Shown here in pieces: positions 397-43,101 of a stretch of DNA of 47,740 bases. The position numbers and the translations under genes are program-made. This stretch comes from a virus (Duplodnaviria; Caudoviricetes): positions 1-47,740 of the IMG/VR virus record IMGVR_UViG_3300033485_000026; one strand, written 5' to 3'. Below the pieces are notes generated by a model, which had not been told where the DNA came from, ran no database searches, and saw nothing but the letters and a program-made list of their open reading frames with translations. Numbering within the stretch: position 1 is the stretch's first letter; every line of letters starts with the position of its first letter.

Positions 397-400
397 ATCC

Positions 401-1843
401 TCACCAACCTCGCGGTTTGCCGATGGTTCCCGCGATACGGCGCGGTGCCTTAGTCGGTGCGAGCGCGAGTGCGAGCGCATCCGACTTGTCGGGGCTTCGG
501 CCCAGACGCTTCTTGATCTCTGCTTTCGCCTCTAGGACGATCTTCCCGTTGCGTACAAGGTAACGCACGGCGCGGAGTTCAGACAGTAGTTCATCATCAG
601 CCGGCAGCGAGAGTTCCCCGCGCTCGGCGAGCAGTTTGAGGTTCCAGTACACCTCGGCGCGGCGGTTGATGAACTTCTCGGGGTGCATCGCGGTCATGCC
701 GACATTGATGCCATCGACCGGCAGTCCTGCCGATGCGAGGATGTCCACGACGCCGCCGCCGACGCCGATGTCGTCGATGCGGATACTCTCGGGGGTATCC
801 TCCGACGCCTGGTAGAACGCCTCGATGTCGTCCGCGACATGCTTCGTGCTCTTGCGCTCCCAGGACGAGAGGCCCACGACGCGGGTCCCGCGGCAGCGCC
901 AGAGGACCGTGTTGTCGTCGCCGAAGCGGGCTACGTCCACTCCCCAGTTATGGGGACCATCGACTCCAGGGGCTCCGACACATCGCCTAAGAACCATAGG
1001 GTCAATGAGTTTATCGGCACTACCAACCATCCCCCAAACACCGTCGATGTAGGCGTCCATGAGTTCAGGGGTATCGGAGTAGAGTTCCCGTATGCGTTCC
1101 TCATAGCCTGGGGGCAGGAACGTGTTATCGCGCATGAGTGACTGCACGAACGCCTCGTCGTTGTGGGGATCGTCAACCATCCGTTGCAGCCAGCAGTCCT
1201 CCGGGTTCGAGGTGATGATGACGTATCCATACTTGAGGCTCCGTTCCGATCGGCCAGGACGGGTGATGAGGAGTCTCGCCGGCGTCTCCTCGGTGTCCGA
1301 CGCCTCCTCGATGACCGCGGCGTCGAGTTCCATCGACTTCACGCGCTCCGCGTCCTCGGTCGATCCGAGGCCGCCGTACTCGATCCTGCTCCCGTTGTCA
1401 TGGCGGAAGACCATGTCGTGTTTGAGGTGCTTCCACCCGGGCCGGCTGACTATGTTGATCTGCCGGAGCATCGTGTCGAGCGTCGTGCGCGTGAACGCCT
1501 TTGCCTCGTTGCGGCACATATATACACGGAAGCCGGGGACGTGCTCGCAGGTGACCGCGGTCTTCGCGCAGACGTAGAACGACTTGCCGCCACCGACCGC
1601 CCCGCCGAACAGGACGACCGGGATTCCGCCGACAGCGCCGGTACGGGCGGCGATCTCCGCCCGCTTCTCCTCGATGACCCGGCTGCACTCGGCCTGCCGG
1701 TCGGTCCAGGTGAACTCGAGTTCCTTCGCCTGCTTGTAGCGGGCGAGGAGCATGGCGAGCGCCTCGCGCTCGGGACGGGACAGTTGCGCGATGGCCCGCT
1801 TGCGATCGGGGAGATCGAGTTCGAGGAACTCGGCTAGTTGCAC
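401..1843 (-). CDS. terL: Terminase large subunit
   Basis: Walker A GGAVGGGKS, Walker B AAVIEEASD, coupling motif TSNP, RNase H-like nuclease motifs GVDVARFGDD / RIDDIGVGGGV / SPDKSDAL. Likely GTG start at 1843 overlapping the upstream stop. Confidence 0.95.
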   Translation of the reverse strand: MQLAEFLELDLPDRKRAIAQLSRPEREALAMLLARYKQAKELEFTWTDRQAECSRVIEEKRAEIAARTGAVGGIPVVLFGGAVGGGKSFYVCAKTAVTCEHVPGFRVYMCRNEAKAFTRTTLDTMLRQINIVSRPGWKHLKHDMVFRHDNGSRIEYGGLGSTEDAERVKSMELDAAVIEEASDTEETPARLLITRPGRSERSLKYGYVIITSNPEDCWLQRMVDDPHNDEAFVQSLMRDNTFLPPGYEERIRELYSDTPELMDAYIDGVWGMVGSADKLIDPMVLRRCVGAPGVDGPHNWGVDVARFGDDNTVLWRCRGTRVVGLSSWERKSTKHVADDIEAFYQASEDTPESIRIDDIGVGGGVVDILASAGLPVDGINVGMTAMHPEKFINRRAEVYWNLKLLAERGELSLPADDELLSELRAVRYLVRNGKIVLEAKAEIKKRLGRSPDKSDALALALAPTKAPRRIAGTIGKPRGW

Positions 1844-2403
1844 GTTCTCTCCAACAGGATGAAATCGCAGATCATGTCCGGCTTCGGCGCTTCTACGATA
1901 CGCAGTATGCGGAAGTCTGGATACCTCTCCAGGTATGGAAGGAAGTCGCGGTGCCATTCCTGGGTGCCCTCCCCGTGCGGACGGGCTTCGAGCGTCGTCT
2001 GGATGAGCACCCCTTTGGATGCGTGTCCGAAGATGTCATCGAGCGTCCTCACGAACTCGCTTTCATCGCTGACGTGCATCAGGACCTCGAGGCAGATGGT
2101 CGCATCGTACATGCCCAGTCCCAGGTCGCCAGGTTCGTAGAGCGACAACTCGGCCCTCGGATGGCGCTTGCGGCACAACTCGATTGCCTTCCGTGAGACA
2201 TCCAGCCCCCGATAGACCGGGATGTGGTAGTAGGAGAGTTGGTTGCCGTCGCCGCATCCGAACTCGAGTACACTCGTCGCCCCGATCTCGGCGAGGAACG
2301 TGTTGACGACCGACGCCTTATACTCGGCGTTCTTCCCGTAACTCCCCGCTCCCGAGGTCTGCCCGGAAGCATACCGCCAGTCCCAGTAGGCGGCGTCTGT
2401 CAT
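1834..2403 (-). CDS. Class I SAM-dependent methyltransferase
   Basis: VLEFGCGDG SAM-binding motif, GLDVS, and N-terminal YWxxRY..G.TSGAGSYG as seen in glycan-cluster MTases. Confidence 0.85.
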   Translation of the reverse strand: MTDAAYWDWRYASGQTSGAGSYGKNAEYKASVVNTFLAEIGATSVLEFGCGDGNQLSYYHIPVYRGLDVSRKAIELCRKRHPRAELSLYEPGDLGLGMYDATICLEVLMHVSDESEFVRTLDDIFGHASKGVLIQTTLEARPHGEGTQEWHRDFLPYLERYPDFRILRIVEAPKPDMICDFILLERTCN

Positions 2404-3985: not shown

Positions 3986-4797
3986 GTCGTGTAGTCTCCC
4001 GAGAACAGTCGCGGATGGAACCCTGGCCGGTTGAGGCGGACGAGGTCATAGCGGTCGCAGGAGAGGTCGCCCGTCTCCGTCATGTGGACGCACTCCACGT
4101 CCCAGGCCGCCGCCAGGTGGTAGCCCGCGAGTTTCATGCGATAGGTGACCGAGGTGTCGTGACCGAAGGCGTTGTCGTACTCGTCCCACGGCACGGATGC
4201 GTAGACCTCAGGGCGCGATAAGACGCAGTAGACGCCCGTGGCATCCACCGGCGCGATGCCCTTGCCGGGCTTCGCCGAAGCGAGGATCGTCGGGCTCTCC
4301 ATGCCGCTTATCTGCCAGAGTCCCGGCTTGCGGAGGGCCCACCGACCGACCTCGAAACCGCAGACCCAGTCGTACCCCATCTTGATGCCGGCCAGTAGTG
4401 ACTGCCAGGTGTGGGGCGGGATCAGGGTGTCGTCCTCGAGCAGCAGGATGCGCGACACGTCCCGCGGCATCAGCCCGATCGAGGTGACCCGCATGACGGT
4501 GTGCCGGGCACGGCGGAGTCGGACCAACCTCCCGTCGTCCACCCTCTCGGAGCCGGACGCCCAGTCCGAGTAGTGGACACTGAGCGATGGCACGGGAAGC
4601 GGGGTCGCTCTCCTGACGACCGCCTCGAGGAGCGAGAGGTCGTCAGAGTCGATATAGACGGTGAGGCGGCAGCGCGAGAGCGGGACATCGGATGAGACGA
4701 GCGCATCGAAGAACCTGTCAACGCACCACTCCCGCGTGAACGGGACGAACACCCAGACATCTCCGCCGCCGTCTCTCAGTACCTCGGTCGTCCTCAA
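3982..4797 (-). CDS. Putative GT-A fold glycosyltransferase
   Basis: VFVPFTR N-terminal strand, ILLLEDD, VDATGVYC, GHD and a late WDVECVH, the typical layout of phage GT-A proteins. Lies in the sugar cluster. Confidence 0.65.
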   Translation of the reverse strand: MRTTEVLRDGGGDVWVFVPFTREWCVDRFFDALVSSDVPLSRCRLTVYIDSDDLSLLEAVVRRATPLPVPSLSVHYSDWASGSERVDDGRLVRLRRARHTVMRVTSIGLMPRDVSRILLLEDDTLIPPHTWQSLLAGIKMGYDWVCGFEVGRWALRKPGLWQISGMESPTILASAKPGKGIAPVDATGVYCVLSRPEVYASVPWDEYDNAFGHDTSVTYRMKLAGYHLAAAWDVECVHMTETGDLSCDRYDLVRLNRPGFHPRLFSGDYTT

Positions 4798-4919
4798 CGG
4801 CGCTTCCTCTTACGCTTCCTCGGGCGTGGCTTGGACCCATACTTCCTCGTCCAGCGAGCCGCGATGCGTGGATGTCGAGCCCACATGAAACGGCGGTGCT
4901 TCGCGCTGCGGAAGGGCAT
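4794..4919 (-). CDS. Small highly basic protein (41 aa), below the ORF-track cutoff
   Basis: MPFRSAKHRRFMWARHPRIAARWTRKYGSKPRPRKRKRKRR*. Start overlaps the upstream stop (TGATG) and stop overlaps the next start (TTGA). Resembles small MPFxSxxQRR-type phage ORFs. Confidence 0.75.
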   Translation of the reverse strand: MPFRSAKHRRFMWARHPRIAARWTRKYGSKPRPRKRKRKRR

Positions 4920-5908
4920 CAGACCCACCTCTCGATCGCCTCGATGCAGGCGAGCCCCGCCTTCCCGTCGCCGAAGGCATCACTCCTCGGCCCGGTCGGT
5001 CGCGACCGCACCGCGATGGCGAGGTCCTCGGGTTCGGTGAGGCGGTTCCAGCCGCCCTCGAGCGTCTCGGGCCATTCAGTCCTGTCACGCAAGGTATAGC
5101 ACGGCACCCCCGCGAAGTAACACTCCCTCGTGACCCCGCCGGAGTCGGTCACCACGCAGTACGCGCCCCGGATCAGGACGTGCATCTGTTCGTAGGTGGC
5201 GGCCTCGCAGAACACCTTGCGCTTGAACCCCATCTCGCGCATCCCCCTCATCGTGCGGTGGTGCGCCATCCAGTATACGGGGAGGGGTATATCCGAGATG
5301 CCGAGGATGCAGGCGGCCAGGCGTGGGACGTTCTCCACGTTGCTCTGGCGATGGAGGGTCACGAGGCAGTAGCCGCCGCGCTCTAATCCCCGATGCGCGA
5401 GGATGGCGGCGATCTCCCGATCGTCCACGATGCTCTCGAGGCTCGTGTAGGCGTCGAGCATCACATCGCCCGTGATGACCGAGGACAGGCCCTCCTTCCA
5501 GAGGTTCTCCGAACACGCCTTCGTCGGGGCGAGGCGGAGCGATGCCACCTTGTCGGTGAAGATTCTGTTGCGCTCCTCGGGCATGGATGGGTCCCGCGAC
5601 CGGCAGCCGGCCTCCACATGCACGACCGGGATGCCCTCTAAGGATGCCGCGGTCGCGCCGTAGACGGTGGAATCGGTGTCGCCGTAGACGATGACGGCGT
5701 TCCCGCCGAGTTCTCCCCGGAGGTGCGGGAGCGTCCAGTTCTTGCGGAGGATCACGTCGGGGCGGGGGAAGCCGCCTATCATCGCCCGATCGTAGTGCTG
5801 CCCGGTGTCGATGATGCGGTGGAGGTGTCCGAGGGTCTTGGCTGCGGCGTCTAGGACCCGCACCTTGACGTAGTTCGGGCGGGTCCCGATGACGGATGTG
5901 AGGAGCAT
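4919..5908 (-). CDS. wecB: UDP-N-acetylglucosamine 2-epimerase (non-hydrolysing)
   Basis: GTRPNYVK, DTGQHYD, YGDTDST, HVEAGCRS, MPEERNR, VTLHRQSN, TDSGG, RDRTEWPE, FGDGKAG. Confidence 0.95.
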   Translation of the reverse strand: MLLTSVIGTRPNYVKVRVLDAAAKTLGHLHRIIDTGQHYDRAMIGGFPRPDVILRKNWTLPHLRGELGGNAVIVYGDTDSTVYGATAASLEGIPVVHVEAGCRSRDPSMPEERNRIFTDKVASLRLAPTKACSENLWKEGLSSVITGDVMLDAYTSLESIVDDREIAAILAHRGLERGGYCLVTLHRQSNVENVPRLAACILGISDIPLPVYWMAHHRTMRGMREMGFKRKVFCEAATYEQMHVLIRGAYCVVTDSGGVTRECYFAGVPCYTLRDRTEWPETLEGGWNRLTEPEDLAIAVRSRPTGPRSDAFGDGKAGLACIEAIERWV

Positions 5909-6198
5909 CAGTGGGTGATGGTGAACATCGGTTGGGTGAGCGTCAGGTCGACGTGCTGGTCCTTGCCCACATGGTACGGCGTCCGGTCGCGTCTGCTGTA
6001 CCAGCCGGCAAGCATCCCGTACTCGATCTCATAGATCGTCTCGATGCGCTTCCGCGACTGTTTCTTGGTGAACTTCATCTTCGGCGGGGGATCGTCGGCA
6101 TAGAACCCCCACCCGCGCCATTCTCCGGAGCACTCGTAGACCGCATAGACCTCGCCGCCCACGAGTACCGTCACCTTGATGAGCCCGCGCTCACTCAT
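5908..6198 (-). CDS. Hypothetical protein (96 aa, starts MSERG)
   Basis: ATG at 6198 inside the junction repeat. Stop overlaps the wecB start. Confidence 0.65.
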   Translation of the reverse strand: MSERGLIKVTVLVGGEVYAVYECSGEWRGWGFYADDPPPKMKFTKKQSRKRIETIYEIEYGMLAGWYSRRDRTPYHVGKDQHVDLTLTQPMFTITH

Positions 6199-6442
6199 GG
6201 CGCACCCCTTCCCATTCGCCGCACCAGTCAGTCTCGTGTACCAACGGGAATGAACCTCGTCGCGCTCTGAGTTGCAGGTCGGGCTCGTCATAGTGGCGCA
6301 CTTTCGGCGGGTGGGCACGGCACTCGTGGTAGATGGCATCCACCGGTATCGGACACCAGAACCGACACGATGAGCATGGGCCCCATCCGTCACTCGGCTT
6401 CTTGCGATGATGATAGAAGTAGCCCTCCGGTGGCTCACTCAT
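6191..6442 (-). CDS. Small Cys-rich hypothetical protein (83 aa)
   Basis: MSEPPEG...CSSCRFW...CRAHPP...FPLVHETDWCGEW. This CxxCxxW / CRxxPP / WCGE pattern is common in phage ORFs. Confidence 0.7.
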   Translation of the reverse strand: MSEPPEGYFYHHRKKPSDGWGPCSSCRFWCPIPVDAIYHECRAHPPKVRHYDEPDLQLRARRGSFPLVHETDWCGEWEGVRHE

Positions 6443-6662
6443 GGCGCACCGCTTCCTCAACGTGATAGCGGAACGTGAGCGTCTGGAAGCCGGTGTGCTC
6501 CTTGTCCCACCAGATGCCGTCACGAGGTACGTCCATTGTGTCGTACTCGATGGTGAACTCCCTCGGGTGTATGTGTCCCGATTCCAACCCAGCGAGAATC
6601 TGGCGCAGCGCGAGCATGGCTGCCGTTCGGACTTCCTCACTCGTTCGTAGTCGCTCACTCAT
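6435..6662 (-). CDS. Hypothetical protein (75 aa)
   Basis: Bounded by junction repeats at both ends (starts MSE, ends VRHE*). Confidence 0.65.
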   Translation of the reverse strand: MSERLRTSEEVRTAAMLALRQILAGLESGHIHPREFTIEYDTMDVPRDGIWWDKEHTGFQTLTFRYHVEEAVRHE

Positions 6663-6996
6663 GGCGCACCGCTTCCTGGGCTTCTTTCAGGCGCATCTCT
6701 GTCGTGCCGTAGGTGTGTCGTGACGCCAGCCACCGTGCCACGGCTTCCCACTCGTTGCGCTCGGCTGCTACGCGCTTGACATTACGCATCATGGCAAGAA
6801 TCTCGTCCTTTGCTTGCGCGTTCTCCGCTTCCAGCCGCTCGATGTGGCCCTGCAAGTACCCCCTCGCGTCGTATTCCGCGACACCCTTAGTAGGGATACA
6901 CGCCATCAGGAAGTCCAATCGCCGCATCGCGTCCTCGTGGGTGTATGCCTTCTTCGGCAACTCGAACCCGTCCATGCTGTGCTCCCACTCCTTCAT
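6655..6996 (-). CDS. Hypothetical coiled-coil protein (113 aa), paralogue of 15653..15910
   Basis: SD AAGGAGCGG before the ATG at 6996. Shares YTHxDAMR, IERLEAE, RWLA and AQEAVR with 15653..15910. Confidence 0.7.
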   Translation of the reverse strand: MKEWEHSMDGFELPKKAYTHEDAMRRLDFLMACIPTKGVAEYDARGYLQGHIERLEAENAQAKDEILAMMRNVKRVAAERNEWEAVARWLASRHTYGTTEMRLKEAQEAVRHE

Positions 6997-7565
6997 GGCC
7001 GCTCCTTCCCGTCGCACGGGAAGACCTCGAACAGGGGTCCTCCGCAGCGGCATTTCTCGATCCTGATGGTGGCGATCTCCACCGGGTCGTGGGAACTGCG
7101 CTTGCCCGATGCACTCTGGCGCTTGATGGTCTTGGTGGAGAAGGTGACGGTCCCGTCGATCGGGTGGGGATGGCTCCCGGTCATCAGCGTATCCCCGATG
7201 ACGCGGTTGCGCTTCCCGTCGAGTTGGACCGTGCGGGACCGCTGCTGCGTCCGGGCACCACAGAGGACACATACCCTCATCGGGTGCTGCTCTAAGGTGT
7301 CCTCCCTGCCGGCCTTCCACGCGGCCTCCGCGCACGAGGGGCAGTAGACGAAACCCGCTGTCGGGCGTCCGCAGCAGATACACGCGCCCTCGCGCTCCTT
7401 CGCCGCATGGGTCGCCCGGGCCTTCCACTTCTCCGTCGCCTCGGCCTTGCTGATGATCCCCACGACGTAGGCGAGCATGGAAGCAGCCCGCTTCTCGTCG
7501 GCCCCGGACTTCTCGAGATCGGCGCAGAACTCCTCGAACCCGTACTGGCGCTTCCCCGATGTCAT
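6993..7565 (-). CDS. Hypothetical protein with zinc-ribbon motifs
   Basis: CICCG...CPSC, CVLC, CRCG. Coupled to both neighbours. Confidence 0.6.
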   Translation of the reverse strand: MTSGKRQYGFEEFCADLEKSGADEKRAASMLAYVVGIISKAEATEKWKARATHAAKEREGACICCGRPTAGFVYCPSCAEAAWKAGREDTLEQHPMRVCVLCGARTQQRSRTVQLDGKRNRVIGDTLMTGSHPHPIDGTVTFSTKTIKRQSASGKRSSHDPVEIATIRIEKCRCGGPLFEVFPCDGKERP

Positions 7566-7566
7566 C

Positions 7567-8346
7567 TTACCCCTCCCCGAAGTCCATGATCTCCTGGTTC
7601 TCGTCCCCCGCTGGACTGCGTTCGGTATTCATCCACCAGTCGTACATGTCGTCCGAATCGTAGCGCCATCCTCCGCGCTCGAGCCCGTCGTCGATCGCAC
7701 GGTTGAGCGAGCGCCGGCAGGAGCGGCGGTAGGCGTCCGCGTACTTCGGCCACCGTTCGACATCACGCTGCCGCAAGGGGTTGTACATCATCGGACACAT
7801 GATGCAGCCGATCCGGGTGAATCCCTCGTCATAAAGCGAGCAGTACGGAAGGCCGCGGTCGCGGATGTATGCCCAGACCTCCTCGTCGGTCCAGTTGATG
7901 ATGGGATTGAGGTAGTTCTTGCGCCCGGTGTAGCAGACCTCGATCTGCCGGCGCTTGCTCCGCTTCACGGACTCCGCCCACCGGATGCCCGTGACGACCG
8001 TGCGCCCCTCCCCGCCGCGCTCCTTGAGCGCCTCGCAGCAGTAGCGGGCAACTCTCGTCGGGGGATACCGCTTCTTCACGATGAGGGCCCACATTGTCGT
8101 GTCGGCGAAGTCCCACGCGACATCGGGGTAGTGCTCGCGAATGTGCCGCCTGAGTTCGGGTGGGTCGGGGACCGAGGCGCTGTAATGGGCATCGAAGGCC
8201 ACACCGCTGCGGACGGCGAGATCGTAGATCACACTCGAGTCTTTACCGCCACTGAACGCGAGCCAGTAGCCCTCAGCGGGCTCTAACTCGCGCAGGAGTT
8301 CTATCGCCGCCTCGTCCTTCCGCTCCCCGAACAGGTCCGCGTCCAC
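7567..8346 (-). CDS. PAPS-reductase family protein
   Basis: PP-loop AFSGGKDS, RYCCEALKE, TGIRWAES, NPIINWT, LYDEGFTRIGCIMCP. Confidence 0.92.
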   Translation of the reverse strand: MDADLFGERKDEAAIELLRELEPAEGYWLAFSGGKDSSVIYDLAVRSGVAFDAHYSASVPDPPELRRHIREHYPDVAWDFADTTMWALIVKKRYPPTRVARYCCEALKERGGEGRTVVTGIRWAESVKRSKRRQIEVCYTGRKNYLNPIINWTDEEVWAYIRDRGLPYCSLYDEGFTRIGCIMCPMMYNPLRQRDVERWPKYADAYRRSCRRSLNRAIDDGLERGGWRYDSDDMYDWWMNTERSPAGDENQEIMDFGEG

Positions 8347-8705
8347 GTTCCTCCGCCCCGAGATGACCGTTCGTCGGAAAGGGTATACCTACCCCGGTAT
8401 CGGGTCAACTTTGGGTACTTGCAGGGCACGGATTCTGGTGGATGATGGATGTACCAGACGCCAGACGAGAGGGGAATCCGTGGGCCATCGCTGAACCTCC
8501 CCGGCACCTCTCCGAACCCGTCGAGCGCACAGGTGACACGCCTGCTCCGGGGCATGAATCCGCCGGGAACACAGTCTGGTCTTGTCCACCGACCCACTAG
8601 CCGTCAGAGGGCCACAGTTCGGTCATGGGTGAGGATACCGCCGCCCAGGTAGGACATCCCCACAACACCCCCGATCAGAGAAACGTGTAGCAACTCGCGG
8701 GAGGG

Positions 8706-8830
8706 GGGTAGGGGGGAGGGAATGCCTTTCGCCGCAGGTCAGCATGGTTACAGCGCCTTTCGAGTCAATAATCTGCGAGAAGGATGGTTCGCGGGGTTCC
8801 CGATCTCGCTGTGGAGTGCCCGGGGTAGGG
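8706..8830 (+). other. Three KOPS-like octamers (GGGNAGGG) pointing toward the dif-like site
   Basis: GGGTAGGG 8706-8713, GGGGAGGG 8713-8720, GGGTAGGG 8823-8830. Confidence 0.55.
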
Positions 8831-8835
8831 CCCTA

Positions 8836-8863
8836 GCATGACGTAAGGTACATTATCGCGAGT
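8836..8863 (-). other. dif-like XerC/XerD recombination site
   Basis: Minus strand reads ACTCGCGATAA-TGTACC-TTACGTCATGC (11-6-11), compared with E. coli dif GGTGCGCATAA-TGTATA-TTATGTTAAAT. Intergenic. Confidence 0.65.
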
Positions 8864-9131
8864 TCGTTTGTGCTCACGATCGGCGCTGATGTATCAACCC
8901 GGCCCCGATATACACTACCGGCCCGAATCTACCCGAACCCATGCCCGATCGTTTGCCCGGGCCGCGCCTACGATCGGTGTCAATCTACCCTGCCCCAACC
9001 CACGATCACTGATCGCTTGCGACCCTTCGGATGATGAACCCGACCCTACCATCAGCGACCCCGGCCGATGGTCCGCATGGGGCATTGTAGGGCTCGCAGG
9101 GTACCATCCGAGACGGCCGCCCGAATCATGG

Positions 9132-9160
9132 TTGACCCTGCCGATACCCGGGTATATAGT
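9132..9160 (+). promoter_or_regulatory. Sigma70/SigA-type promoter for the early block
   Basis: TTGACC-17 nt-TATAGT. Confidence 0.8.
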
Positions 9161-9272
9161 GACTGGTGTAACGATGATCGGCCCGGCCGATACGACCCCG
9201 GCCGATCGGCAACTTGATAGTCGAATATGGGAGTAGTCTCAGGGCCCCGATAGTGATTGGAGCGGGTCACTG

Positions 9273-10571
9273 ATGACACGAAAGAAGATCAGACTATGGT
9301 TGGAAGCGTACAAGTACGATGTATGGGTACCGACCCCGGGCACCGATCAACCCTGGCATGATGGCAAGTTGACCCGGGCCGATAGCAGGGTTCGGGTTGT
9401 CCCATACGATCGCCCGAAGGGTACGACCGGCCGTTGGACCGGTGGAGCGAACTACCAACCCCGAACCGGGGCCGATATGTACCGGGCCCTTGATACGTGG
9501 TTGGGCGCGAAGGGTTACCGGCCCGGGCCGGGGCATCCGAAGACGGTTGAAGTGTATCGGTTGTACCGTAATCCCGGGCAGGAGCAAATCGGGGTTCGGT
9601 TGTATTCGACTACCGTTGTGCGGGTTCATCCGAACGGGTCAATCGAACTCGACTGGTCGGGTTGGTTCACGCAAACAACCAACCGAATCATCAATGAGTA
9701 CCTGCCCCGGGATTGGTCGGTATTCGGCACCCGAATCCCGATACTGCGAGCCCCGAACGGTACCATGTACCGGGTTACCGGTTCGCTCATGATCGGACCC
9801 CGGGGTCACGTTACCCCGACCGATGGTGGCCGGTACGCATGGGCCAAACCCGGCAACTATCAGTGGTACGACCGGGCCCGAACCCCGTACCCGAACGGTA
9901 CCGAACCGTTCAAGTTCCGAAACTGGGAAGGGTATCACCAGTACGAACTCGCACTCCGGGCAACCGAACGAAAGAGCGAACGCGACCGGGCCCGGGCTGC
10001 CGCCGACCGTGAACGGGAAGACGCGGCCCGACGTGCCGAATGGGTATCGATCCGGCCGGTACGACCGAAGACGGCCCCCGGGTACGGTTGGAAATTTCTG
10101 AACCATGAGCGAACCGGCCCGGAGTTCCGGTTGGTTTCGGCGTTCGACCAGCGGTCGCACGGTTGGGGAAGCGGCCCCTATTGGCCCGAACCCGGGTCGT
10201 GGCGCGATGATGAACTCCGGGCCCCATGCGTCGGGTTGAACTGCTCGACCGACGCTGATTCGGCCGCCGGGTTCGTGAACGGTAGCGTAATCGCCCGGGT
10301 CGCATGGGCGGGCCGGTATCACGACGATTCGACCAATGGGAAGATCACCAGCGACAGCATGAGTATCCTGGCCGCATGGGTGGTCCGGGGTTCCAGCGAT
10401 ACCACGGCCGATATGTACCACGCGCCGATGGTCCGTGAACCCGATCTCATGGTTGATGGTTGGGCATGGGCCCCGGGCAAGTTGATTGCCCCGAACGGCC
10501 GCATTGACGATCTAACCCCGACCCTGCCGAAGATCGGCCCCGAACTGAACCCGTCTTTACCGAACGGGTAA
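9273..10571 (+). CDS. Hypothetical protein (432 aa), first gene of the early block
   Basis: Long ORF downstream of the promoter with SD GGAGCGG. Atypical codon usage. No family recognised. Confidence 0.75.
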   Translation: MTRKKIRLWLEAYKYDVWVPTPGTDQPWHDGKLTRADSRVRVVPYDRPKGTTGRWTGGANYQPRTGADMYRALDTWLGAKGYRPGPGHPKTVEVYRLYRNPGQEQIGVRLYSTTVVRVHPNGSIELDWSGWFTQTTNRIINEYLPRDWSVFGTRIPILRAPNGTMYRVTGSLMIGPRGHVTPTDGGRYAWAKPGNYQWYDRARTPYPNGTEPFKFRNWEGYHQYELALRATERKSERDRARAAADREREDAARRAEWVSIRPVRPKTAPGYGWKFLNHERTGPEFRLVSAFDQRSHGWGSGPYWPEPGSWRDDELRAPCVGLNCSTDADSAAGFVNGSVIARVAWAGRYHDDSTNGKITSDSMSILAAWVVRGSSDTTADMYHAPMVREPDLMVDGWAWAPGKLIAPNGRIDDLTPTLPKIGPELNPSLPNG

Positions 10572-10781
10572 CGAGTACCGGCCCGAACTACTCCCGAACG
10601 ACTATCAACCGGCCCCGGCCCCGATCAATGGGACCGGGGCCGATCTTCAATCGAACCGACCCCGACCGGGTACCCTGCCCGGCCGGGTACTCCCATGCCC
10701 GAACCCATGCGGCCCCGGTTGCCGATCTTCGGCCCGGGGCCCTACCATGCCCGGCCCCGATCGTAACCCCGGCCCTGCTCA

Positions 10782-10824
10782 TGATCGGCCCCGGGGTTGC
10801 CGATACCCTACCCGGGGCCGATCA
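10782..10824. repeat. 14-bp perfect inverted repeat (hairpin)
   Basis: TGATCGGCCCCGGG 10782-10795 / CCCGGGGCCGATCA 10811-10824. Confidence 0.85.
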
Positions 10825-11033
10825 CCGAACCGGCCCGGCCGGGGCCCCGACCCCGACCCCGACCCGGGGCCGCTGGACACCGAAGAAACTTGAAGCGCCT
10901 AGCGTTGAAGTCCGTGGGCGTGAAGTCCTTGCGCTCGCCGTCCGTGAGGCGATCGCCAGTGAAGTATCGAGAGGGACGACGGATCGTGGCGGCCGGATTG
11001 GGGGTGAGTTGGTATGGCCGACGATTGAAGTGT

Positions 11034-11062
11034 TTGACACCGGATTCCATCGGGTATACAGT
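11034..11062 (+). promoter_or_regulatory. Second sigma70/SigA-type early promoter
   Basis: TTGACA-17 nt-TACAGT. Shares CGGGTATAyAGT with the 9132 promoter. Confidence 0.8.
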
Positions 11063-11113
11063 TGTCACAATGAGGGGACCGGAGCGGACCCCCATGAGAG
11101 TTAGGAGCGGACC

Positions 11114-11326
11114 ATGCGTACACTTACCATGCGGGAACACGTCAGGGGCACTCACCCTGCCGAGTACCGCGAGCGCGAACTGTCGGCTACACGGCTCGCC
11201 GACGTTCGACGCGCTATCACCCGGGGCCGTGATCTGTTCAACGGCGGCAGGTGCGGGGCGGCCGCTATCTACTTCGAGTGGGTCACCGACGCACTCCGCG
11301 AGCGGGCCGGGGGGTGTGCCCGATGA
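11114..11326 (+). CDS. Hypothetical protein (70 aa)
   Basis: SD TAGGAGCGG. ATGA overlap with the next gene. Confidence 0.7.
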   Translation: MRTLTMREHVRGTHPAEYRERELSATRLADVRRAITRGRDLFNGGRCGAAAIYFEWVTDALRERAGGCAR

Positions 11327-11841
11327 AGTCGTATGACGCGATCGGTTACGTTCACCTGTCCGACACCTACTGCGATGGTTGTGGGGCCCGACTCATGCCG
11401 GGGCCCGACGACCCGGAGTGGTACCCGATCTTCGCCGACTCCGAGTGGGATTACATACCGGCGTGTAACGAGTGCGGTTGGCCGATCGAAGACGTGTCAC
11501 TCACGAGCGAAGGGCTCGCCTACACCCGGGCGGCCCTGCTCGGCGATTGGAACGGCGAACCCGATCATCGTGACGCATGGGTGCGGTGCTTCGACGCCAA
11601 CGGCGGGTCACTGACGCGCTACGGCTACGGTATCGGTTCTTCCGGGTGTCTGTACGATTCGGTGAGCGGCCCGTATGACACCGAAGCCGAAGCGATTGAG
11701 GCGCTACGCGAGACGATGAGCCCGACCGATGACGAGCCGACCGGGTGGACCGAAGTGGGCCCGGGATACTGGAACGGCCCCGGGATACAGACGGCCGAAG
11801 TGTTCTCATCCGACGAGCCCGGCGACGATTGGGGTGAGTGA
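11323..11841 (+). CDS. Acidic hypothetical protein with CxxC pairs (172 aa)
   Basis: MKSYDAIGY...YCDGC...PIFADSEWDY.PACNECG. SD GGGGGTG. Confidence 0.7.
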   Translation: MKSYDAIGYVHLSDTYCDGCGARLMPGPDDPEWYPIFADSEWDYIPACNECGWPIEDVSLTSEGLAYTRAALLGDWNGEPDHRDAWVRCFDANGGSLTRYGYGIGSSGCLYDSVSGPYDTEAEAIEALRETMSPTDDEPTGWTEVGPGYWNGPGIQTAEVFSSDEPGDDWGE

Positions 11842-11844
11842 ACC

Positions 11845-12129
11845 ATGCGCGAACACGTTGCCTATGTACCGGTGATCGGCTCGACGGGTATCACGCTTGG
11901 GTTGGCCGACGCCGATGAGCGCGGGTACTACCGGCTCAACTGGTGCGGAGACTACCCGACCATGCAAGCGGCCCGGAGCGCGGCCGACGAACTCAATGCC
12001 GATCTGGGAGTGACCCCGGCCGAGGCGTATGCGGTGCAAGTGTGCTCGATGTTTCGGCCGGGCGAGTTTACCGAAGTGTTGGAGTGGGTCACCCGTCCGG
12101 GTGGCCCGAGTCTACCGAAGGAGCGGTGA
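11845..12129 (+). CDS. Hypothetical protein (94 aa)
   Basis: SD GGGGTG. Tightly packed in the operon. Confidence 0.7.
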   Translation: MREHVAYVPVIGSTGITLGLADADERGYYRLNWCGDYPTMQAARSAADELNADLGVTPAEAYAVQVCSMFRPGEFTEVLEWVTRPGGPSLPKER

Positions 12130-12132
12130 GCG

Positions 12133-12435
12133 ATGAGCAGGTACTACGGCAACATACTCGGCAACCGGGGTGAGGCGACCCGGCAGGGCACGGCGTCGAG
12201 CGGGTTTCGGGCGTCGGCACGATCGTACATCGGAAGTGTGACGGTCCGACTCTGGGAGAACGATGAGGGCAAGCGCGGCCGCAAGGACTACCGCGAGCGC
12301 GACGAGATCACGATTGACGTGGGCAGGGGGTCGATGGTCGGCGGCCGTGAAGTGTTCAGGTCCGATCTGCGTTCGCTTGTTGAAGCCGTCGAAGCCGGGG
12401 CCGTGTTCCAGTTGGTGTACCCACCTGACGAGTAG
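12133..12435 (+). CDS. Hypothetical protein (100 aa)
   Basis: MSRYYGNILGNRGEATRQGT, a motif seen in phage early genes. SD AAGGAGCGG. Confidence 0.75.
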   Translation: MSRYYGNILGNRGEATRQGTASSGFRASARSYIGSVTVRLWENDEGKRGRKDYRERDEITIDVGRGSMVGGREVFRSDLRSLVEAVEAGAVFQLVYPPDE

Positions 12436-12524
12436 CCGGGCGGCACCCGGCCGAATACCCCGGGTTGAGGGGCCCGGGGTCGTGGGATAGCCGATGGGCC
12501 GCAAGCGCGGCCGGTTAGGAGCGG

Positions 12525-13175
12525 ATGAGGATGGAACCCTACGAGACTGAGAAGGTCGGACGGTTCACGATCAAGTTGTACCCCGACGAAGCCGGGAACT
12601 CGCCCCGCGACTGGGACAACCTGGGCACGATGGTATGCTGTCACCGCGACTACGATCTGGGCGACGAGAAACCGGACCCGCGCATTGATCGGATTGAAGT
12701 GCTCGTCCGGTACTACGCCGGTACGGGGGGCGAGTGGTTCCCGCTGTACCTGCTCGACCACTCCGGGTTGTGGCTCAGAACCGGCACGTTCGCTTGCGAT
12801 TCGGGTATCGGCGGGCCGGGGCCGGGTGGCGGGTGGGATACGTCACTGGTGGGCATTATCTACGTCACCCGTGAGCAGATCATCGCGGAGTACGGCGACG
12901 ACTCGGCCGAGAACCGGGCCCGGGCTCGTGAAGTGCTCCAAGCCGAAGTCAAGGTGTATTCCCAGTGGCTTGAAGGCGACGTGCGCGGATGGGTCCTTGA
13001 AGACGCCGACGGCAACACGATCGACTCGTGTTGGGGGTATTACGACGATGGGGACGCACTCGCCGACGCACGGTCGGAAGCGGCCGGGGAGATCGAGCGC
13101 GAGCGCGTCGAGAAGCAGGAGCGCGTCAAGCGGTTCATCAAGTCCGGTGTGCCGCTGATCTATCGGACGGCGTAA
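12525..13175 (+). CDS. Conserved hypothetical protein of phage/mobile-element early regions (216 aa)
   Basis: SPRDWDNLGTMVCCHRDYDLGD, PLYLLDHSGL, WDTSLVG, EVKVYSQWLEGDV, DSCWGYY. Confidence 0.8.
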   Translation: MRMEPYETEKVGRFTIKLYPDEAGNSPRDWDNLGTMVCCHRDYDLGDEKPDPRIDRIEVLVRYYAGTGGEWFPLYLLDHSGLWLRTGTFACDSGIGGPGPGGGWDTSLVGIIYVTREQIIAEYGDDSAENRARAREVLQAEVKVYSQWLEGDVRGWVLEDADGNTIDSCWGYYDDGDALADARSEAAGEIERERVEKQERVKRFIKSGVPLIYRTA

Positions 13176-13189
13176 AGGAGCGTGGAGCG

Positions 13190-13600
13190 GTGAAGGTACT
13201 AGTGGGCACGACTGAGGGGCAGGGCAAGCGGGCCAATGACTTCTCGTTCACGAACGAGTTGGAGTTGGTCGGGTTCGGGTTCGAGTGCGACGGCGAAGCG
13301 GTTGACGGCTCGTGCGGCTGTCGCCGGTCGATGGTCGGGCTCGAATCAGGCAAGGCGACGACGACCATGCGGGTAGTTGAAGCACTCACGGTTGATTCGG
13401 TCGCGGACCTTGCCGAGCGGGTGTTCGGGGGGCTCGACCGGGGCGGGTGGGTGGCGCTCATGGGCGAATCGGAAGCGCGGGAACAGGCACTCACCGACGC
13501 GCAGGAGATCGTCCGTATCGCTGACGTGTTCCCGGTCGGCACCATCGTCGAGAAGCGGGGCAACCGCTTCCAGATCAGGGAAGGAGCGGAGCAGTCATGA
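13190..13600 (+). CDS. Conserved hypothetical Cys-containing protein (136 aa)
   Basis: KVLVGTTEGQGKRANDF...CDG...GSCGCRRSMVGLESGKATTT. Resembles an actinobacterial uncharacterised family. GTG start at 13190. Confidence 0.75.
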   Translation: MKVLVGTTEGQGKRANDFSFTNELELVGFGFECDGEAVDGSCGCRRSMVGLESGKATTTMRVVEALTVDSVADLAERVFGGLDRGGWVALMGESEAREQALTDAQEIVRIADVFPVGTIVEKRGNRFQIREGAEQS

Positions 13601-13908
13601 CGATCGCGAAGTTCACCCCGGGGCCGTGGGTCAATGAGGGCTGCAACATTAGGAGTGCGGCCACCAACACGGGTATCGCGATTGTCGGTACTACGTGGGG
13701 CGACGGGGCGTTGAGCCACGATCAGAACGTGGCGAACGCCGTTCTGATCGGAGCGGCCCCGGAGTTGTACGGCGCTCTGCGGGAGTGCGTGTTCCAGTTT
13801 GGCCTACTGGAAGAAGCCGGGATGCTTGGAACCGCAGACGTGGAGGCACTCAGCGCGGCACGATCGGCATTGGCGAAGGCGGAAGGGGGCAACGGTGGAA
13901 CCCGATGA
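13597..13908 (+). CDS. Phage hypothetical protein (TPGPW / ANAxLIxAAPEL family)
   Basis: FTPGPW and ANAVLIGAAPELY motifs. Confidence 0.8.
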   Translation: MTIAKFTPGPWVNEGCNIRSAATNTGIAIVGTTWGDGALSHDQNVANAVLIGAAPELYGALRECVFQFGLLEEAGMLGTADVEALSAARSALAKAEGGNGGTR

Positions 13909-14161
13909 GATGATCTTCCCCAAGACGTTCTGGCACGTCTTCTCGCCAGATAACGACGACTATGACTTCTGGACCGACGTGGAAGATCAGGCGGAAGCGG
14001 AGTTTGACCGATGCAAGGAGCGGTTCGGGTCCGCCCGTCTCTACTCCGAGACGTACCAGACACGCGAAGACTATGACGAGATGAGAGGCCAGGAAGAACT
14101 AGAAGACTGGTGCGATCGTGACGGCGACGGCACCGATGAGGGGGTGAGTGATGGGGCATAG
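13895..14161 (+). CDS. Highly acidic small protein (88 aa)
   Basis: GTG at 13895 with upstream GGGGG. D/E-rich. Confidence 0.65.
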   Translation: MEPDEMIFPKTFWHVFSPDNDDYDFWTDVEDQAEAEFDRCKERFGSARLYSETYQTREDYDEMRGQEELEDWCDRDGDGTDEGVSDGA

Positions 14162-14190
14162 CCGACGCGCTCAGTCCTGATCGTGAGAGC

Positions 14191-14216
14191 GGCCCGGGGG
14201 TTACGGCCCCCGGGCC
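14191..14216 (+). terminator. GC-rich hairpin, possible terminator or processing site
   Basis: GGCCCGGGGG-TTACG-GCCCCGGGCC, intergenic, no U-tract. Confidence 0.4.
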
Positions 14217-14233
14217 AGATTGGAGCGGTTGCG

Positions 14234-14437
14234 ATGAGACGCAAGCCGCACGGCTACTGGACGACGTGCCGCCGGTGCGGACGGCCGGTGTGGACCAGCG
14301 GGGGCATCATCGGCGGGGCCGCGCTGTACGAGCGGTACGGCCGTATCTGCGACGAGTGCATCACCCCCGATGAGGAACACGCGATACTTCACGGGCAAGC
14401 CGGTGACCTGATCGGCCGGGCAGGTGGAGCGAAGTGA
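14234..14437 (+). CDS. Small zinc-finger-like protein (67 aa)
   Basis: CRRCG...ICDEC. SD GGAGCGG. Confidence 0.7.
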   Translation: MRRKPHGYWTTCRRCGRPVWTSGGIIGGAALYERYGRICDECITPDEEHAILHGQAGDLIGRAGGAK

Positions 14438-14526
14438 AGCGGGAACTGCTCGCCGACGTGCTCACCCTTGCCCTGCTCGCGGTGTGCTTCTACCTGACCT
14501 ACTGTCTGCTCGCCACGATGAAGTGA
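14434..14526 (+). CDS. Small membrane peptide (30 aa)
   Basis: VKRELLADVLTLALLAVCFYLTYCLLATMK*. GTGA and TGATG overlaps with its neighbours. Confidence 0.55.
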   Translation: MKRELLADVLTLALLAVCFYLTYCLLATMK

Positions 14527-14936
14527 TGGGAGTTGAAGTCCTGATGGGTGACTTGATAACGGTTGCACGGGCCGCTCGTGAACTTGGAGTCGAGCGCCAG
14601 ACGGCGTATCGGTACATCAAGTGCGGCCGGCTGCCGGCCCGGGAGATCGCCGGCCGGCTCGTGGTCGATGCGGACGATCTTGAAGCCGTGCGCGTCGGCG
14701 TCCGCGGATGGCCCCCGGTCCACAAACCGGACAAGCGCGAGTGGACGAAGGCGATGGTTCGCCTGCGCTCGCGCCAGTGGAACGACGCGGTTGAGTCGGG
14801 CCTATTCGACGATCCGATCACCGGGGAGATCGACCCCGGGCTCATAGCCGCGTGGGAGATCGAGCACGGCTGGACACATGAAGAACTACGGCACATGGCC
14901 GAGAAGATCGTCACTCCACGCGACCCGTTTCAGTGA
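14526..14936 (+). CDS. Xis/MerR-like helix-turn-helix DNA-binding protein
   Basis: LITVARAARELGVERQTAYRYIKCGRLPA. Start at 14526 or 14544. Confidence 0.8.
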   Translation: MGVEVLMGDLITVARAARELGVERQTAYRYIKCGRLPAREIAGRLVVDADDLEAVRVGVRGWPPVHKPDKREWTKAMVRLRSRQWNDAVESGLFDDPITGEIDPGLIAAWEIEHGWTHEELRHMAEKIVTPRDPFQ

Positions 14937-14947
14937 GAGGAGAGCCG

Positions 14948-15145
14948 ATGCTGAGGCCCGATCAGATCACCGATGTTGAAGTCCTGCGCCACGCCGTCGC
15001 GCTGCTCGCGGAAGAAGCCGCGGACGTTGGGTGCGACCGCTGTTGTGCGAGCGCCCTATGCGCGATAGGCGAGGACCAGGATGAGGAGTGCGCCGTCACG
15101 ATCGCGTCGTGGGCCGTGACGGTCGCTGAGGAGGAACCCGCATGA
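14948..15145 (+). CDS. Hypothetical protein (65 aa)
   Basis: SD GAGGAG. Cys cluster CDRCC. Confidence 0.6.
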   Translation: MLRPDQITDVEVLRHAVALLAEEAADVGCDRCCASALCAIGEDQDEECAVTIASWAVTVAEEEPA

Positions 15146-15207
15146 TGAAGTGGCTGGAACGGCTCATAGACCGGCTCACGATCGCCTTCTGGAAGGGGAC
15201 GCGATGA
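15142..15207 (+). CDS. Possible 21-aa peptide
   Basis: MMKWLERLIDRLTIAFWKGTR*. SD GAGGAGG and ATGA overlaps at both ends. Confidence 0.45.
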   Translation: MMKWLERLIDRLTIAFWKGTR

Positions 15208-15656
15208 GAACGACAAGTCCTGAGACGATAGTTGAAGTCCTGGCGGGCCAATGCCTCACCGGGGCGGTGATGCTCCCGAACGGGATGCTCGGGCTCCTGT
15301 TCGACGACGGGCACCTGCTCGCCGTGAGCGAGAAACTCTATCTGATGCACGAAGGCCCGGCCGCCGATGTGCTTGTGGCCGCGCAGGATCGTCTGAGAGA
15401 CGCGAAGGCGGAACTGGCGACCCTGGACTCGTTCATGGGATTACCGGCCGTCTCAGAGCCTTCTGTGCGCGAGAGGGCCACACGGATGCGGGACGATGCC
15501 GCGATCCATACGCCACGGCGGAAGATTGAAGCCGTGTTGGGTGAAGTCCCTGAGCCTGAGTTCATCGGCGACGACCATCCCGGCCTCGAGATGGACGACG
15601 TTCAGAAGCGGGCGCGGCTCGAGAAGGCCAGCCGCGGCGTACCGGACGTACTGTGA
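15204..15656 (+). CDS. Hypothetical protein (150 aa)
   Basis: ATG at 15204 with SD AAGGGG. Operon packing. Confidence 0.65.
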   Translation: MRTTSPETIVEVLAGQCLTGAVMLPNGMLGLLFDDGHLLAVSEKLYLMHEGPAADVLVAAQDRLRDAKAELATLDSFMGLPAVSEPSVRERATRMRDDAAIHTPRRKIEAVLGEVPEPEFIGDDHPGLEMDDVQKRARLEKASRGVPDVL

Positions 15657-15910
15657 TGAGCGACTACACCCACGACGATGCGATGCGTGTTGAGGCGATT
15701 GCGGCGTTGACCGCCATACAACTCGTGTCGGCCTTCGATGTCGTCCCCGTATTCGCCTACATCGAGCGGCTGGAAGCGGAGAAGCGGTGGCTGGCGGAGG
15801 AGATGGCGGGTGCGCTCAACGGCGATACCGTGGTTTACAGCGACGGACGGCGAATGGGGACGGCTACACAGTGGCTCGATGCCGCCCAGGAAGCGGTGAG
15901 GAAGGGCTAG
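15653..15910 (+). CDS. Hypothetical protein (85 aa), paralogue of 6655..6996
   Basis: Shared motifs YTHDDAMR, IERLEAE, RWLA, AQEAVR. Stop overlaps the convergent stop at 15907. Confidence 0.7.
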   Translation: MMSDYTHDDAMRVEAIAALTAIQLVSAFDVVPVFAYIERLEAEKRWLAEEMAGALNGDTVVYSDGRRMGTATQWLDAAQEAVRKG

Positions 15911-16344
15911 TCCTGGCGCTCCCGCGCCTCTTTGGGAGCCTCGACCGCGACCCTCGAGAGGATGCTCTCGACCTCGCGGGCGAGGCTCTCGGCGTCTGTC
16001 GAGACGGTGCTCGAGATGTCCGTGGCCTCTCCGCGGATCAGGCGGAGTTTGTCGAACGCGATGCCGGCACCGATGAGCGCGTCCCGAGGGCTCATATCCT
16101 CGATCTTGGCCCGGGCGACCTGGAGGCATGAATCATGAAGTTCCTGCCACCACGCCTCTTGCCGCTTCTTGGCGATCAAGAGGTACTCCTGGCGCTGATC
16201 CTCGTTGAGCGCGTTCCACCACTTCTCGAGCGTCCGGCGCGGGATGCCCGTCGCGGATGAAGCCTTGCGGGTGGAACCGTCGAGCCTCGCGACCTCGATC
16301 AGGAGTTCGCTCTTGTCGATGTCGGAGTAGACGCGGCTCATCAT
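15907..16344 (-). CDS. HTH protein, probable terminase small subunit
   Basis: N-terminal HTH (ASSATGIPRRTLEKW) plus helical GIAFDKLRLIRGEAT segment typical of TerS-like proteins. No other TerS candidate seen. Confidence 0.5.
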   Translation of the reverse strand: MMSRVYSDIDKSELLIEVARLDGSTRKASSATGIPRRTLEKWWNALNEDQRQEYLLIAKKRQEAWWQELHDSCLQVARAKIEDMSPRDALIGAGIAFDKLRLIRGEATDISSTVSTDAESLAREVESILSRVAVEAPKEARERQD

Positions 16345-39514: not shown

Positions 39515-39555
39515 CTATCCCACCCGCTCGGCCATCTTGAGGCGCTCCGTGACCT

Positions 39556-41402: not shown

Positions 41403-41410
41403 CGCGCCCC

Positions 41411-42542: not shown

Positions 42543-42551
42543 CGGCTTCCC

Positions 42552-43031: not shown

Positions 43032-43101
43032 CTCATCTCCTTGCTCTCGCCGGGCGGGTGTCTTCTCTGGCGCTAGACTACACCGCCCTGGAACGGGTGT
43101 G

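Follow-up and report, generated by a model that had tools for sequence, protein, structure and literature searches.

The DNA analysed here (the window) is the whole of IMG/VR record IMGVR_UViG_3300033485_000026, whose 47,740 nucleotides form a complete, circularly permuted tailed-phage genome of 47.7 kb with 63.5% G+C. Its sole plus-strand coding block, at 8.7-15.9 kb (8.72-15.9 kb), has lost a series of short DNA words, and the loss is tied to position beside a conserved non-coding element: it starts sharply at ~8.72 kb, fades over 2-7 kb and recurs in relatives. It is a motif effect in double-stranded DNA, found on both strands and in coding as well as non-coding sequence. The feature is real and well controlled, and on balance it likely reflects restriction avoidance in the leading region of the genome, a strategy known from T5 and Murciavirus.

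Word loss beside the element and its controls

A preliminary description of the window held that GAGGT/ACCTC is missing from the block, that an inner zone lacks even GAGG/CCTC and is rich in CCGG, GGCC, GATC and GTAC, and that the gaps form a nested gradient. Counting bears this out. The window holds 179 GAGGT/ACCTC sites, none between 8506 and 15971, and 714 GAGG/CCTC sites, none at 8716-10946 (0 vs 37.5 expected); in the core zone CCGG stands at 58 vs 12.6 expected, GGCC at 50 vs 13.5, GTAC at 22 vs 7.6 and GATC at 23 vs 11.5. A longest-gap test over 130 four-letter, 425 five-letter and 949 six-letter words, with Bonferroni correction, places GAGG/CCTC (p = 1e-12) and GAGGT (p = 1.3e-11) at the top of the four- and five-letter words, respectively. 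Among the 19 words that pass, 17 have their longest gap inside 8.5-16 kb (3/3 four-mers, 9/10 five-mers and 5/6 six-mers); the sixth significant six-mer is CGGCCG, whose gap is the entire rest of the genome. Further lost words are CGAGG, GATGC/GCATC, ATGTC, GGAGG and AGGC, with AGACC just under the threshold. The nesting is real because the left edges of the gaps lie mostly at 8.2-9.0 kb (GATGC at 9.5 kb, CAGC at 10.9 kb) while the right edges are staggered over 10.9-16.0 kb (Table 1). A CTCGAG gap had also been claimed, with 12 copies counted in bases 1-8240; there are 14, and the gap is real (8234-15585) but not significant, standing outside the top 14 six-letter words. As an independent motif CTCGAG was rejected: the early genes carry 2 copies vs 2.4 in within-block codon shuffles, and its gap is a by-product.

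The loss is a motif effect and not codon bias, because the preference for GAA is confined to sites where GAG would precede G. Before G, Glu is encoded by GAG in 13/55 cases in the early block vs 223/247 in the rest of the genome (the backbone), and no shift is seen before A (23/23 vs 121/125), T (24/27 vs 89/105) or C (21/45 vs 92/174). Similarly, Leu after C is CTC in 2/23 early codons vs 156/284 in the backbone. The first gene, open reading frame (ORF) 9273-10571, does use GAA in 15 of its 19 Glu codons, as described earlier, where the scaffold gene uses GAG in 21 of 26; in the first gene the codon shift extends to other contexts too. With the amino acids of the first nine genes held and backbone codon use applied, CCTC/GAGG number 9 vs 64.3, GCATC 3 vs 18.9, AGACC 0 vs 10.7, CCWGG 4 vs 17.3, GGGAC 3 vs 14.2 and GCWGC 2 vs 11.9. 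Synonymous shuffles within the block give GAGG 16 vs 37.3 and CCTC 2 vs 18.6 (below all 600 shuffles), AGACC 0 vs 6.0 and GGTCT 0 vs 5.4. The four-fold third-base composition of the block equals that of the backbone, and its non-coding DNA (1185 bp) holds 4 GAGG vs 20.0. Depletion thus survives amino-acid, codon-usage and strand control in the codon-shuffled check. A general codon-usage or strand bias was rejected, as the shift is restricted to the GAG-before-G context and persists in within-block shuffles.

Surviving GAGG stands mostly in TGAGG (17/31), and between 8721 and 15253 all 21 survivors are on the plus strand. This one-strand survival has p 2e-5 against the backbone sense ratio and ~0.03 after codon control (16:2 vs 37:19 in shuffles; by hand), and it was not seen in the relatives. 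As a separate observation, GAAGTG/AAGTGT and the stretch GTTGAAGT recur within 11028-15000, and the first nine genes carry AAGTG 10 times where 1.0 would be expected; these words are possibly a short binding site.

The comparison with relatives rests on three genomes (L007, L013 and L014, L013 contributing just 2.0 kb of block), since the distant relatives G001, G002 and G003 give no comparable block: G001 has RecT alone in common, and G002 and G003 have terL (the terminase large-subunit gene) or RecT in common, on contigs without the element or an evident block. The element is 72-82% identical in the three relatives, with unalignable flanks, and each of its boxes is single-copy in 4/4 genomes save for one 3-mismatch match. 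Just right of it, every one of the four genomes departs from its own Markov model and recovers with distance (lowest z -4.0, -4.9, -3.6 and -2.5). In the first 2.0-2.2 kb GAGG stands at 0 vs 37 in the window and at 18 vs 34, 8 vs 24 and 14 vs 32 in the relatives (rates without amino-acid control), and in the three relatives pooled CCTC/GAGG is the most depleted of 115 four-mers (40 vs 89). The word profiles of two relatives correlate with that of the window (rho 0.54 and 0.49). Equally variable genes on the late side have normal word counts, with GAGG at 18.3/kb. A recent import of the block, which had been named as a possible refutation, was looked at and did not refute the positional effect: the dip sits at the same place in relatives whose genes are partly different, and the variable late-side genes lack it.

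The palindromes behave differently from the lost words. The backbone is nearly without 35 six-base palindromes, holds AGCT at 2 vs 91 and has no AATT or TTAA; the block keeps 31/35 of these palindrome bans and the AGCT ban (0 vs 13.5). CGGCCG is the main exception, with 30 copies at 9062..15450 and one (at 17350) in the other 40.3 kb, where 45.1 are expected. Hardly any copies occur in the four backbones or in two additional contigs; the relatives' blocks hold 16 copies in 2.0 kb (L013, vs 1 outside), one (L007) and none (L014), and the sites in the two first genes of the window and L013 lie mostly in different alignment columns. CGGCCG is more frequent than in shuffles made within the block (21 vs 8.7, and 10 vs 2.8 for the L013 gene), and a model banning only the depleted words yields ~11 +/- 3 copies, a lower bound as its ban list is incomplete. 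Six-base palindromes as a whole number 25.9/kb in the core, 16.5/kb in the block and 6.2/kb in the backbone, a rise not seen in T5, T7 or the Caulobacter phage CcrRogue. Random DNA of this G+C would carry ~19/kb by the formula given in the accessible text of PMC13478746; therefore the block taken whole is unpurged in palindrome number, yet its palindromes are concentrated in four words. Ban lists differ between lineages, given that G002 and G003 (L032, L033; L004, L009) contain zero CCGG and zero GATC across the profiled 16 and 11 kb.

Proposed early entry of the block and competing explanations

Our preferred reading, which we hold somewhat more probable than not, is that the block is the first DNA into the host and that the missing words are host restriction-type sites lost by selection, with the gradient steepest beside the element. 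The virion DNA would end at or near the element and packaging would start there toward the late genes, such that the block would be packaged last and ejected first; host RNA polymerase would transcribe it immediately. An early product, or slow entry combined with host methylation, might then protect the later DNA against enzymes reading short frequent words (CCTC, GCATC, CCWGG, GCWGC, GGGAC and AGACC), so that it is proposed that these need purging in front only. Enzymes immune to that product, mostly reading six-base palindromes together with AGCT, AATT and TTAA, would be avoided genome-wide. Early products protecting later DNA include Ocr in T7 and have been proposed in T5 and Murciavirus. 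By established packaging logic, a cut at the element followed by packaging toward terL would load the block last and release it first, in agreement with the direction of the gradient.

Several observations point the same way. Restriction-site avoidance in first-entering DNA has been shown in other phages, according to the accessible parts of PMC12455610 and PMC10644984. The block looks early from its inward promoters and from weak homologues in a Caulobacter phage terminal repeat. Two sigma-70-like promoters, each matching 10/12 consensus positions, point into it, with 3 promoter matches in the region vs 1.9 +/- 1.7 in shuffles (consensus match alone). ORF 12525-13175 matches 20 phage records, four rows of which lie inside annotated Caulobacter terminal repeats (23-24% identity, E 2e-3 to 6e-3); several others are within 8 kb of a record end and two are far from any end. 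Furthermore, the N-domain of ORF 9273-10571 has a weak match in the same left terminal repeat (CcrRogue), and it also matched a Caulobacter phage protein. Compared with 618 sites of Biopython's enzyme table, the top depleted catalogued sites are CCTC (MnlI), GCATC, GGGAC, GCAGC/GCWGC, CCWGG, ACGGA and GGATG, all with normal backbone rates; AGACC is the EcoP1I site.

Other observations weigh against it. The assignment of enzymes is a lead, and the earlier suggestion that the missing words predict host specificities is unproven, because depletion of the catalogued asymmetric sites, taken as one class, does not significantly exceed that of unlisted words (p = 0.21, 0.16 and 0.06 for 4-, 5- and 6-mers), and no catalogued site of equal length corresponds to AGGC, ATGTC, GAGGT or CAGCC. 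Scans of the genome's ORFs gave no anti-restriction gene, with no profile match to Ocr, Ard or a DNA methyltransferase (the Lar profile scored 16 bits vs a cut-off of 39.6). L014, which has a different first gene, shows an uncorrelated profile (rho 0.05) and no Glu-before-G effect, and the leading 7 kb of T7 gave no significant gap in the same test. Contigs bridge the element and their depth neither steps nor doubles, doubling being what a T5-type long terminal repeat carried twice in the virion would give, although contigs cannot reveal ends; depth is 11.6 in the block vs 9.2-13.0 outside it in X1, and 9.1 and 7.3 vs 7.2-9.2 in X2, two runs that are possibly the window's source and whose DNA may be intracellular. 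A likely terminase small-subunit (terS) gene lies at the far end of the block from the element, and the best terminase profiles are PBSX/Terminase_3, terminases that we take to be mostly headful. Leading-region avoidance should not apply to headful phages, as argued in the available text of PMC12455610, and genome-wide surveys describe little avoidance of Type I, IIG and III sites (PMC6286503, as far as its accessible part goes). The earlier proposal that the block was stripped of host targets is incomplete, in that 4/35 of the palindromes banned in the backbone occur there in 40 copies (CGGCCG 30, GGTACC 6, ACCGGT 3, ATCGAT 1). By the logic of that proposal a leading region would keep every backbone ban, where this one keeps 31/35. 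Were CGGCCG kept out of the backbone by a cutting enzyme, 30 copies would not be expected in the DNA most exposed to it; simple stripping fails to explain the reversal. The raised words are partly a by-product of narrowed word choice, and the entry model leaves the CGGCCG reversal unexplained. A reading of the lost words as protospacer adjacent motifs of CRISPR systems was set aside because AAG/CTT, which we take to be such a motif, is undepleted.

Other explanations share some of this evidence. The block may be a mobile early cassette from phages with other hosts, its words recording those hosts and not genome position. Its genes do turn over fast (the first gene is 32-45% identical between relatives vs 83-87% for terL), the word profile tracks first-gene lineage, being similar in the three genomes that share the first gene and different in L014, and foreign origin would account for the backbone-banned palindromes. 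However, the block shares most palindrome bans and the AGCT ban of its own genome, the latter lacking in L002 and L003; the gradient crosses gene borders and non-coding DNA; late-side genes that vary equally show no shift; and CCTC is low even in the first 1.6 kb of L014 (6 vs 25.6). We regard such a heritage as unlikely, if the least unlikely of the alternatives. Packaging could also be headful from a pac site at the element or terS, with variable entry order, and the block could avoid words bound or modified by a silencing host or phage protein where host RNA polymerase must read. The terminase profiles, the terS-like gene at the far end and a bias that peaks around the first promoter and first gene are consistent with this, but no such silencing protein or DNA-modifying enzyme was found among the scanned ORFs, the gradient does not start afresh at the second strong promoter (11034), and several top purged words are catalogued restriction sites; the expression-linked account is accordingly rather improbable. 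Removal of Shine-Dalgarno-like words (GAGG, GGAGG, GAGGT) and their complements for faster translation of early mRNA is already largely refuted and very improbable. The strongest purged words do resemble Shine-Dalgarno sites, and plasmid leading regions are described as codon-adapted and not site-depleted in the accessible text of PMC13478746. Against this, sense-strand CCTC is reduced further than GAGG in within-block shuffles, CGAGG is depleted (2 vs 14.9) but TGAGG is retained (10 vs 5.2), purging extends to non-coding DNA, AGACC, ATGTC, GCATC and CCWGG are not Shine-Dalgarno-like, and folding energy is unchanged.

A further possibility builds on restriction avoidance and addresses the CGGCCG reversal. 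Leading DNA may have been selected in two layers, dropping targets and also stockpiling words that the previous host marks (with phosphorothioate or methyl groups) and that defences attacking unmarked DNA read as self; CGGCCG, GATC and GAAC would then act as a passport past missing-mark defences such as DndFGH. CGGCCG is loaded in the window and L013, mostly at non-homologous codons, and above both the shuffles and the ban-only model. It is the preferred phosphorothioation site in Streptomyces lividans (PMC6435447, accessible text), classical Dnd words exceed shuffles (GAAC 89 vs 65, GATC 48 vs 37, GGCC 76 vs 60), and DndFGH attacks unmarked DNA chiefly early in infection, as described in the available part of PMC10470545. 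Both the loading of self-marks and the two-layer reading as a whole nevertheless seem doubtful. Only 2/4 blocks are loaded with CGGCCG, L014 being GGCC-poor (4 vs 11.7) and L007 neutral (8 vs 8.1); CCGG, GTAC and AACC rise equally and are not among the Dnd words in the accessible portions of PMC6435447 and PMC10470545; the incomplete ban list of the by-product model underestimates the by-product share of CGGCCG; the backbone ban on CGGCCG is left unaccounted for; and four words were chosen after the data were seen. If the two-layer reading were true, the word lists of leading regions would reveal both the cutting and the marking systems of hosts.

Features of the block, the genome and its source

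Table 1. Word-loss zones and annotated features of the window
Feature	Coordinates	Strand	Remarks
Terminase large subunit	401..1957	-	first conserved gene of the late operon running leftward from the element
Conserved non-coding element, 125-nt	8597..8720		boxes 8597-8630 and 8678-8697, G-run to ~8720; between divergent late and early operons
Core zone	8717..10945		no GAGG/CCTC; AGGC absent 8967-10896; CCGG, GGCC, GATC, GTAC, AACC, GAAC raised
Outer zone	8507..15970		no GAGGT/ACCTC; nested gaps CGAGG 8310-12021, GATGC 9533-13821, AGACC 8578-15168, ATGTC 8653-15738
Sigma-70-like promoter	9132..9160	+	ahead of first gene; 10/12 consensus
First early gene, 432 aa	9273..10571	+	Kyano_Gp96-like N-domain, long helix, C-domain related to DUF7666
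Sigma-70-like promoter	11034..11062	+	ahead of second early operon; 10/12 consensus
Small variable genes	11114-11326, 11323-11841, 11845-12129, 12133-12435, 12525-13175	+	
Small variable genes, continued to 14437	13190-13600, 13597-13908, 13895-14161, 14234-14437	+	13190-13600 DUF7715; 14234-14437 DUF2688
Excisionase-like helix-turn-helix (HTH) protein	14544..14936	+	57% identity in two relatives, located distally in their blocks
Last small block genes	14948-15145, 15204-15656, 15677-15910	+	word bias fades here
HTH protein converging on block	15907..16341	-	likely terminase small subunit, weak support

The element is a candidate packaging or terminus site or late promoter. A known RNA in it was rejected, with no Rfam match (folding of four sequences is too thin to judge). 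It is adjoined by a minus-strand gene of the PAPS-reductase family (7567-8346), which is absent at the relatives' loci and matched no Dnd profile; DndC is a member of the PAPS-reductase superfamily. L007, the one relative spanning the whole locus, shares the order of terS-like gene, inverted early block, element, variable sugar genes and terL. In L013, the contig ends within the early block in a tandem run of a 9-nt unit (12060-12122).

ORF 9273-10571 has 109 homologues including itself, and PF23790 is matched by 44/69 aligned members and not by the query. Its predicted model has a mean predicted local distance difference test (pLDDT) score of 79, and a Foldseek search of the PDB gave no match. 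The C-domain, with a conserved K and C-x-G-L-N-x-S, weakly resembles the ADP-ribosyltransferase fold in the model: judged by title, some three quarters of 50 VIA rows belong to this fold class, with a best Z of 5.7, below the tool's noise level of 7-8. Three of the small block proteins are strongly acidic, among them the products of ORF 11323-11841 (34 D+E of 172 aa) and ORF 13895-14161 (29 D+E of 88 aa); by composition, they are candidate DNA mimics. By tblastn, the six genes at 11114-14437 that were searched for were not found at the relatives' loci. ORF 15907-16341 has 6 homologues, one matching a terS PHROG at E 3.8e-4; five terS families are among its weak matches, and a transposase HTH was matched too.

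Early genes of the four genomes carry GGAGCG(G) at the ribosome-binding position, with 9, 5, 1 and 12 pattern matches in the window, L007, L013 and L014 blocks (window positions 9259, 11081, 11104, 12120, 12518, 13177, 13583, 14222 and 14426); minus-strand genes mostly carry GGAGG/AGGAG-type sites. GGAGCG(G) might be recognised by a translational regulator or by a nuclease acting on early mRNA. That it serves as a device for avoiding GAGG was rejected, since the relatives use GGAGCGG too, sometimes inside GAGG.

All genes outside the block are on the minus strand. Their products include terminase, portal, scaffold, capsid, tape measure, Dit-Tal tail tip, an amidase and RecE/RecT, along with numerous enzymes that modify sugars. 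Scans of 79 and 66 ORFs by profile gave neither an integrase nor a DNA methyltransferase, and a crude motif scan gave none either. Sugar-gene clusters at 1834-5908 and 37952-44343 encode glycosyltransferases, epimerases and small-molecule methyltransferases, one cluster standing directly behind the capsid gene; the same slot in relatives is filled by different sugar genes. By analogy with actinobacteriophages, we take both clusters to be likely involved in virion glycosylation. A 1045-aa protein (34053-37190, minus strand) with ~20-aa Thr/Asp/Val-rich repeats (60-nt period) and no Pfam or PHROG match is a candidate long fibre or glycosylated surface protein. Inverted matches, 25-nt perfect and 23-nt near-perfect, link 6821-6945 in a small late-side gene to 15665-15783 in the block's last gene, which suggests a recent duplication across the block, and a 28-nt repeat stands in three copies at gene junctions 6186, 6430 and 6650 (within 6186-6677).

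Long terminal or inverted repeats were rejected; there is only a 9-base end overlap from assembly, and the independent contig L001 confirms the junction. Part of the window is carried by 7/8 listed runs, from wetland and freshwater metagenomes of three studies, two of the runs being possibly its source. Alignment of terL against 185,579 genomes gave no relative that would link it to a host, and against cultured or annotated phages its identity is <=40%, over parts; the relatives found share 75-87% identity in terL. Block DNA had no match in 50,697 phage records, and alongside that search ORF 9273-10571 and ORF 13190-13600 were reported without a match. Pattern scans with ORF 9273-10571 and ORF 12525-13175 gave zero viral contigs, and a metagenome scan with the element pattern gave 10 loci, of which two are the same phage, one is a known relative and seven, without an element or gene match, were dropped.

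Relation to known systems

A literature search that left subscription journals mostly uncovered gave no description of a multi-word nested gradient or of the enrichment in leading phage DNA of backbone-banned palindromes. The nearest counterpart is found in the Tequintavirus phages T5 and BF23, whose first-step-transfer region consists of leading genes read by host polymerase; restriction sites count there but not in the rest of the genome, according to the available text of PMC10644984. The first 9.1 kb of T5 (L036 1-9100) has a word shift of its own in the same rate test (AGAG 12 vs 69, CGCC 98 vs 22.9, GCGC 53 vs 8; without amino-acid control), the leading DNA of T5 and CcrRogue being compared with the next 30-41 kb only. 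The two differ in that the window is a 47.7-kb genome with no terminal repeat or injection pause shown and no T5 pre-early homologues among its profile matches. Moreover, the shift in the window is graded, and six-base palindromes rise in the window's block while they are flat in T5 (14.2 vs 14.4). T5 is a cultured model in which word shifts of leading DNA could be tested.

In Murciavirus (Autographiviridae), restriction selection by the Type I restriction-modification system Mme2I is likewise concentrated on a variable early region at one end. That case, as presented in the accessible text, concerns one bipartite Type I motif, bench-tested in T7-like podoviruses (PMC12455610), whereas in the window, an uncultured phage with a Dit-Tal tail, the nested gradient removes a large number of contiguous words of 4-5 bases. 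The near absence from the backbone of 35 six-base palindromes and of AGCT, AATT and TTAA resembles the orthodox Type II avoidance described in PMC6286503 (accessible part); to this the window adds, in the block alone, the loss of a second set of words, most of them asymmetric, and the return of CGGCCG, GGTACC and ACCGGT. The 21 surviving plus-strand GAGG recall the one-orientation bias of Type III/MANTIS systems, as reported in the available text of bioRxiv 10.64898/2026.09.23.753747, but the bias in the window is local, not genome-wide, and weak after amino-acid control. The terminal repeat of CcrRogue, a phiCbK-like Caulobacter phage, is where the weak homologues of ORF 12525-13175 and ORF 9273-10571 lie, and it too is shifted in word use (L028 1-10300: CTGC 43 vs 108, TTAA 42 vs 2.4; without amino-acid control), although in other words, with no GAGG dip and no palindrome rise, and as a 10.3-kb repeat in a 224-kb genome.

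The sequence of the window records with unusual clarity how selection has acted on one part of a phage genome, with a sharp edge at the element, nested gaps and repetition in relatives. The CGGCCG reversal, seen in two genomes and unexplained by the papers found, is a hint that selection on entering DNA may add words as well as remove them. If the entry model is true, such profiles could show, for uncultured phages known from sequence only, where the genome ends and from which side it enters; they could also supply candidate motifs of host defence and flag a few small acidic genes as anti-restriction candidates. Leading-region avoidance would then not be limited to T5- and T7-like phages but would include a small tailed phage with a headful-looking terminase.

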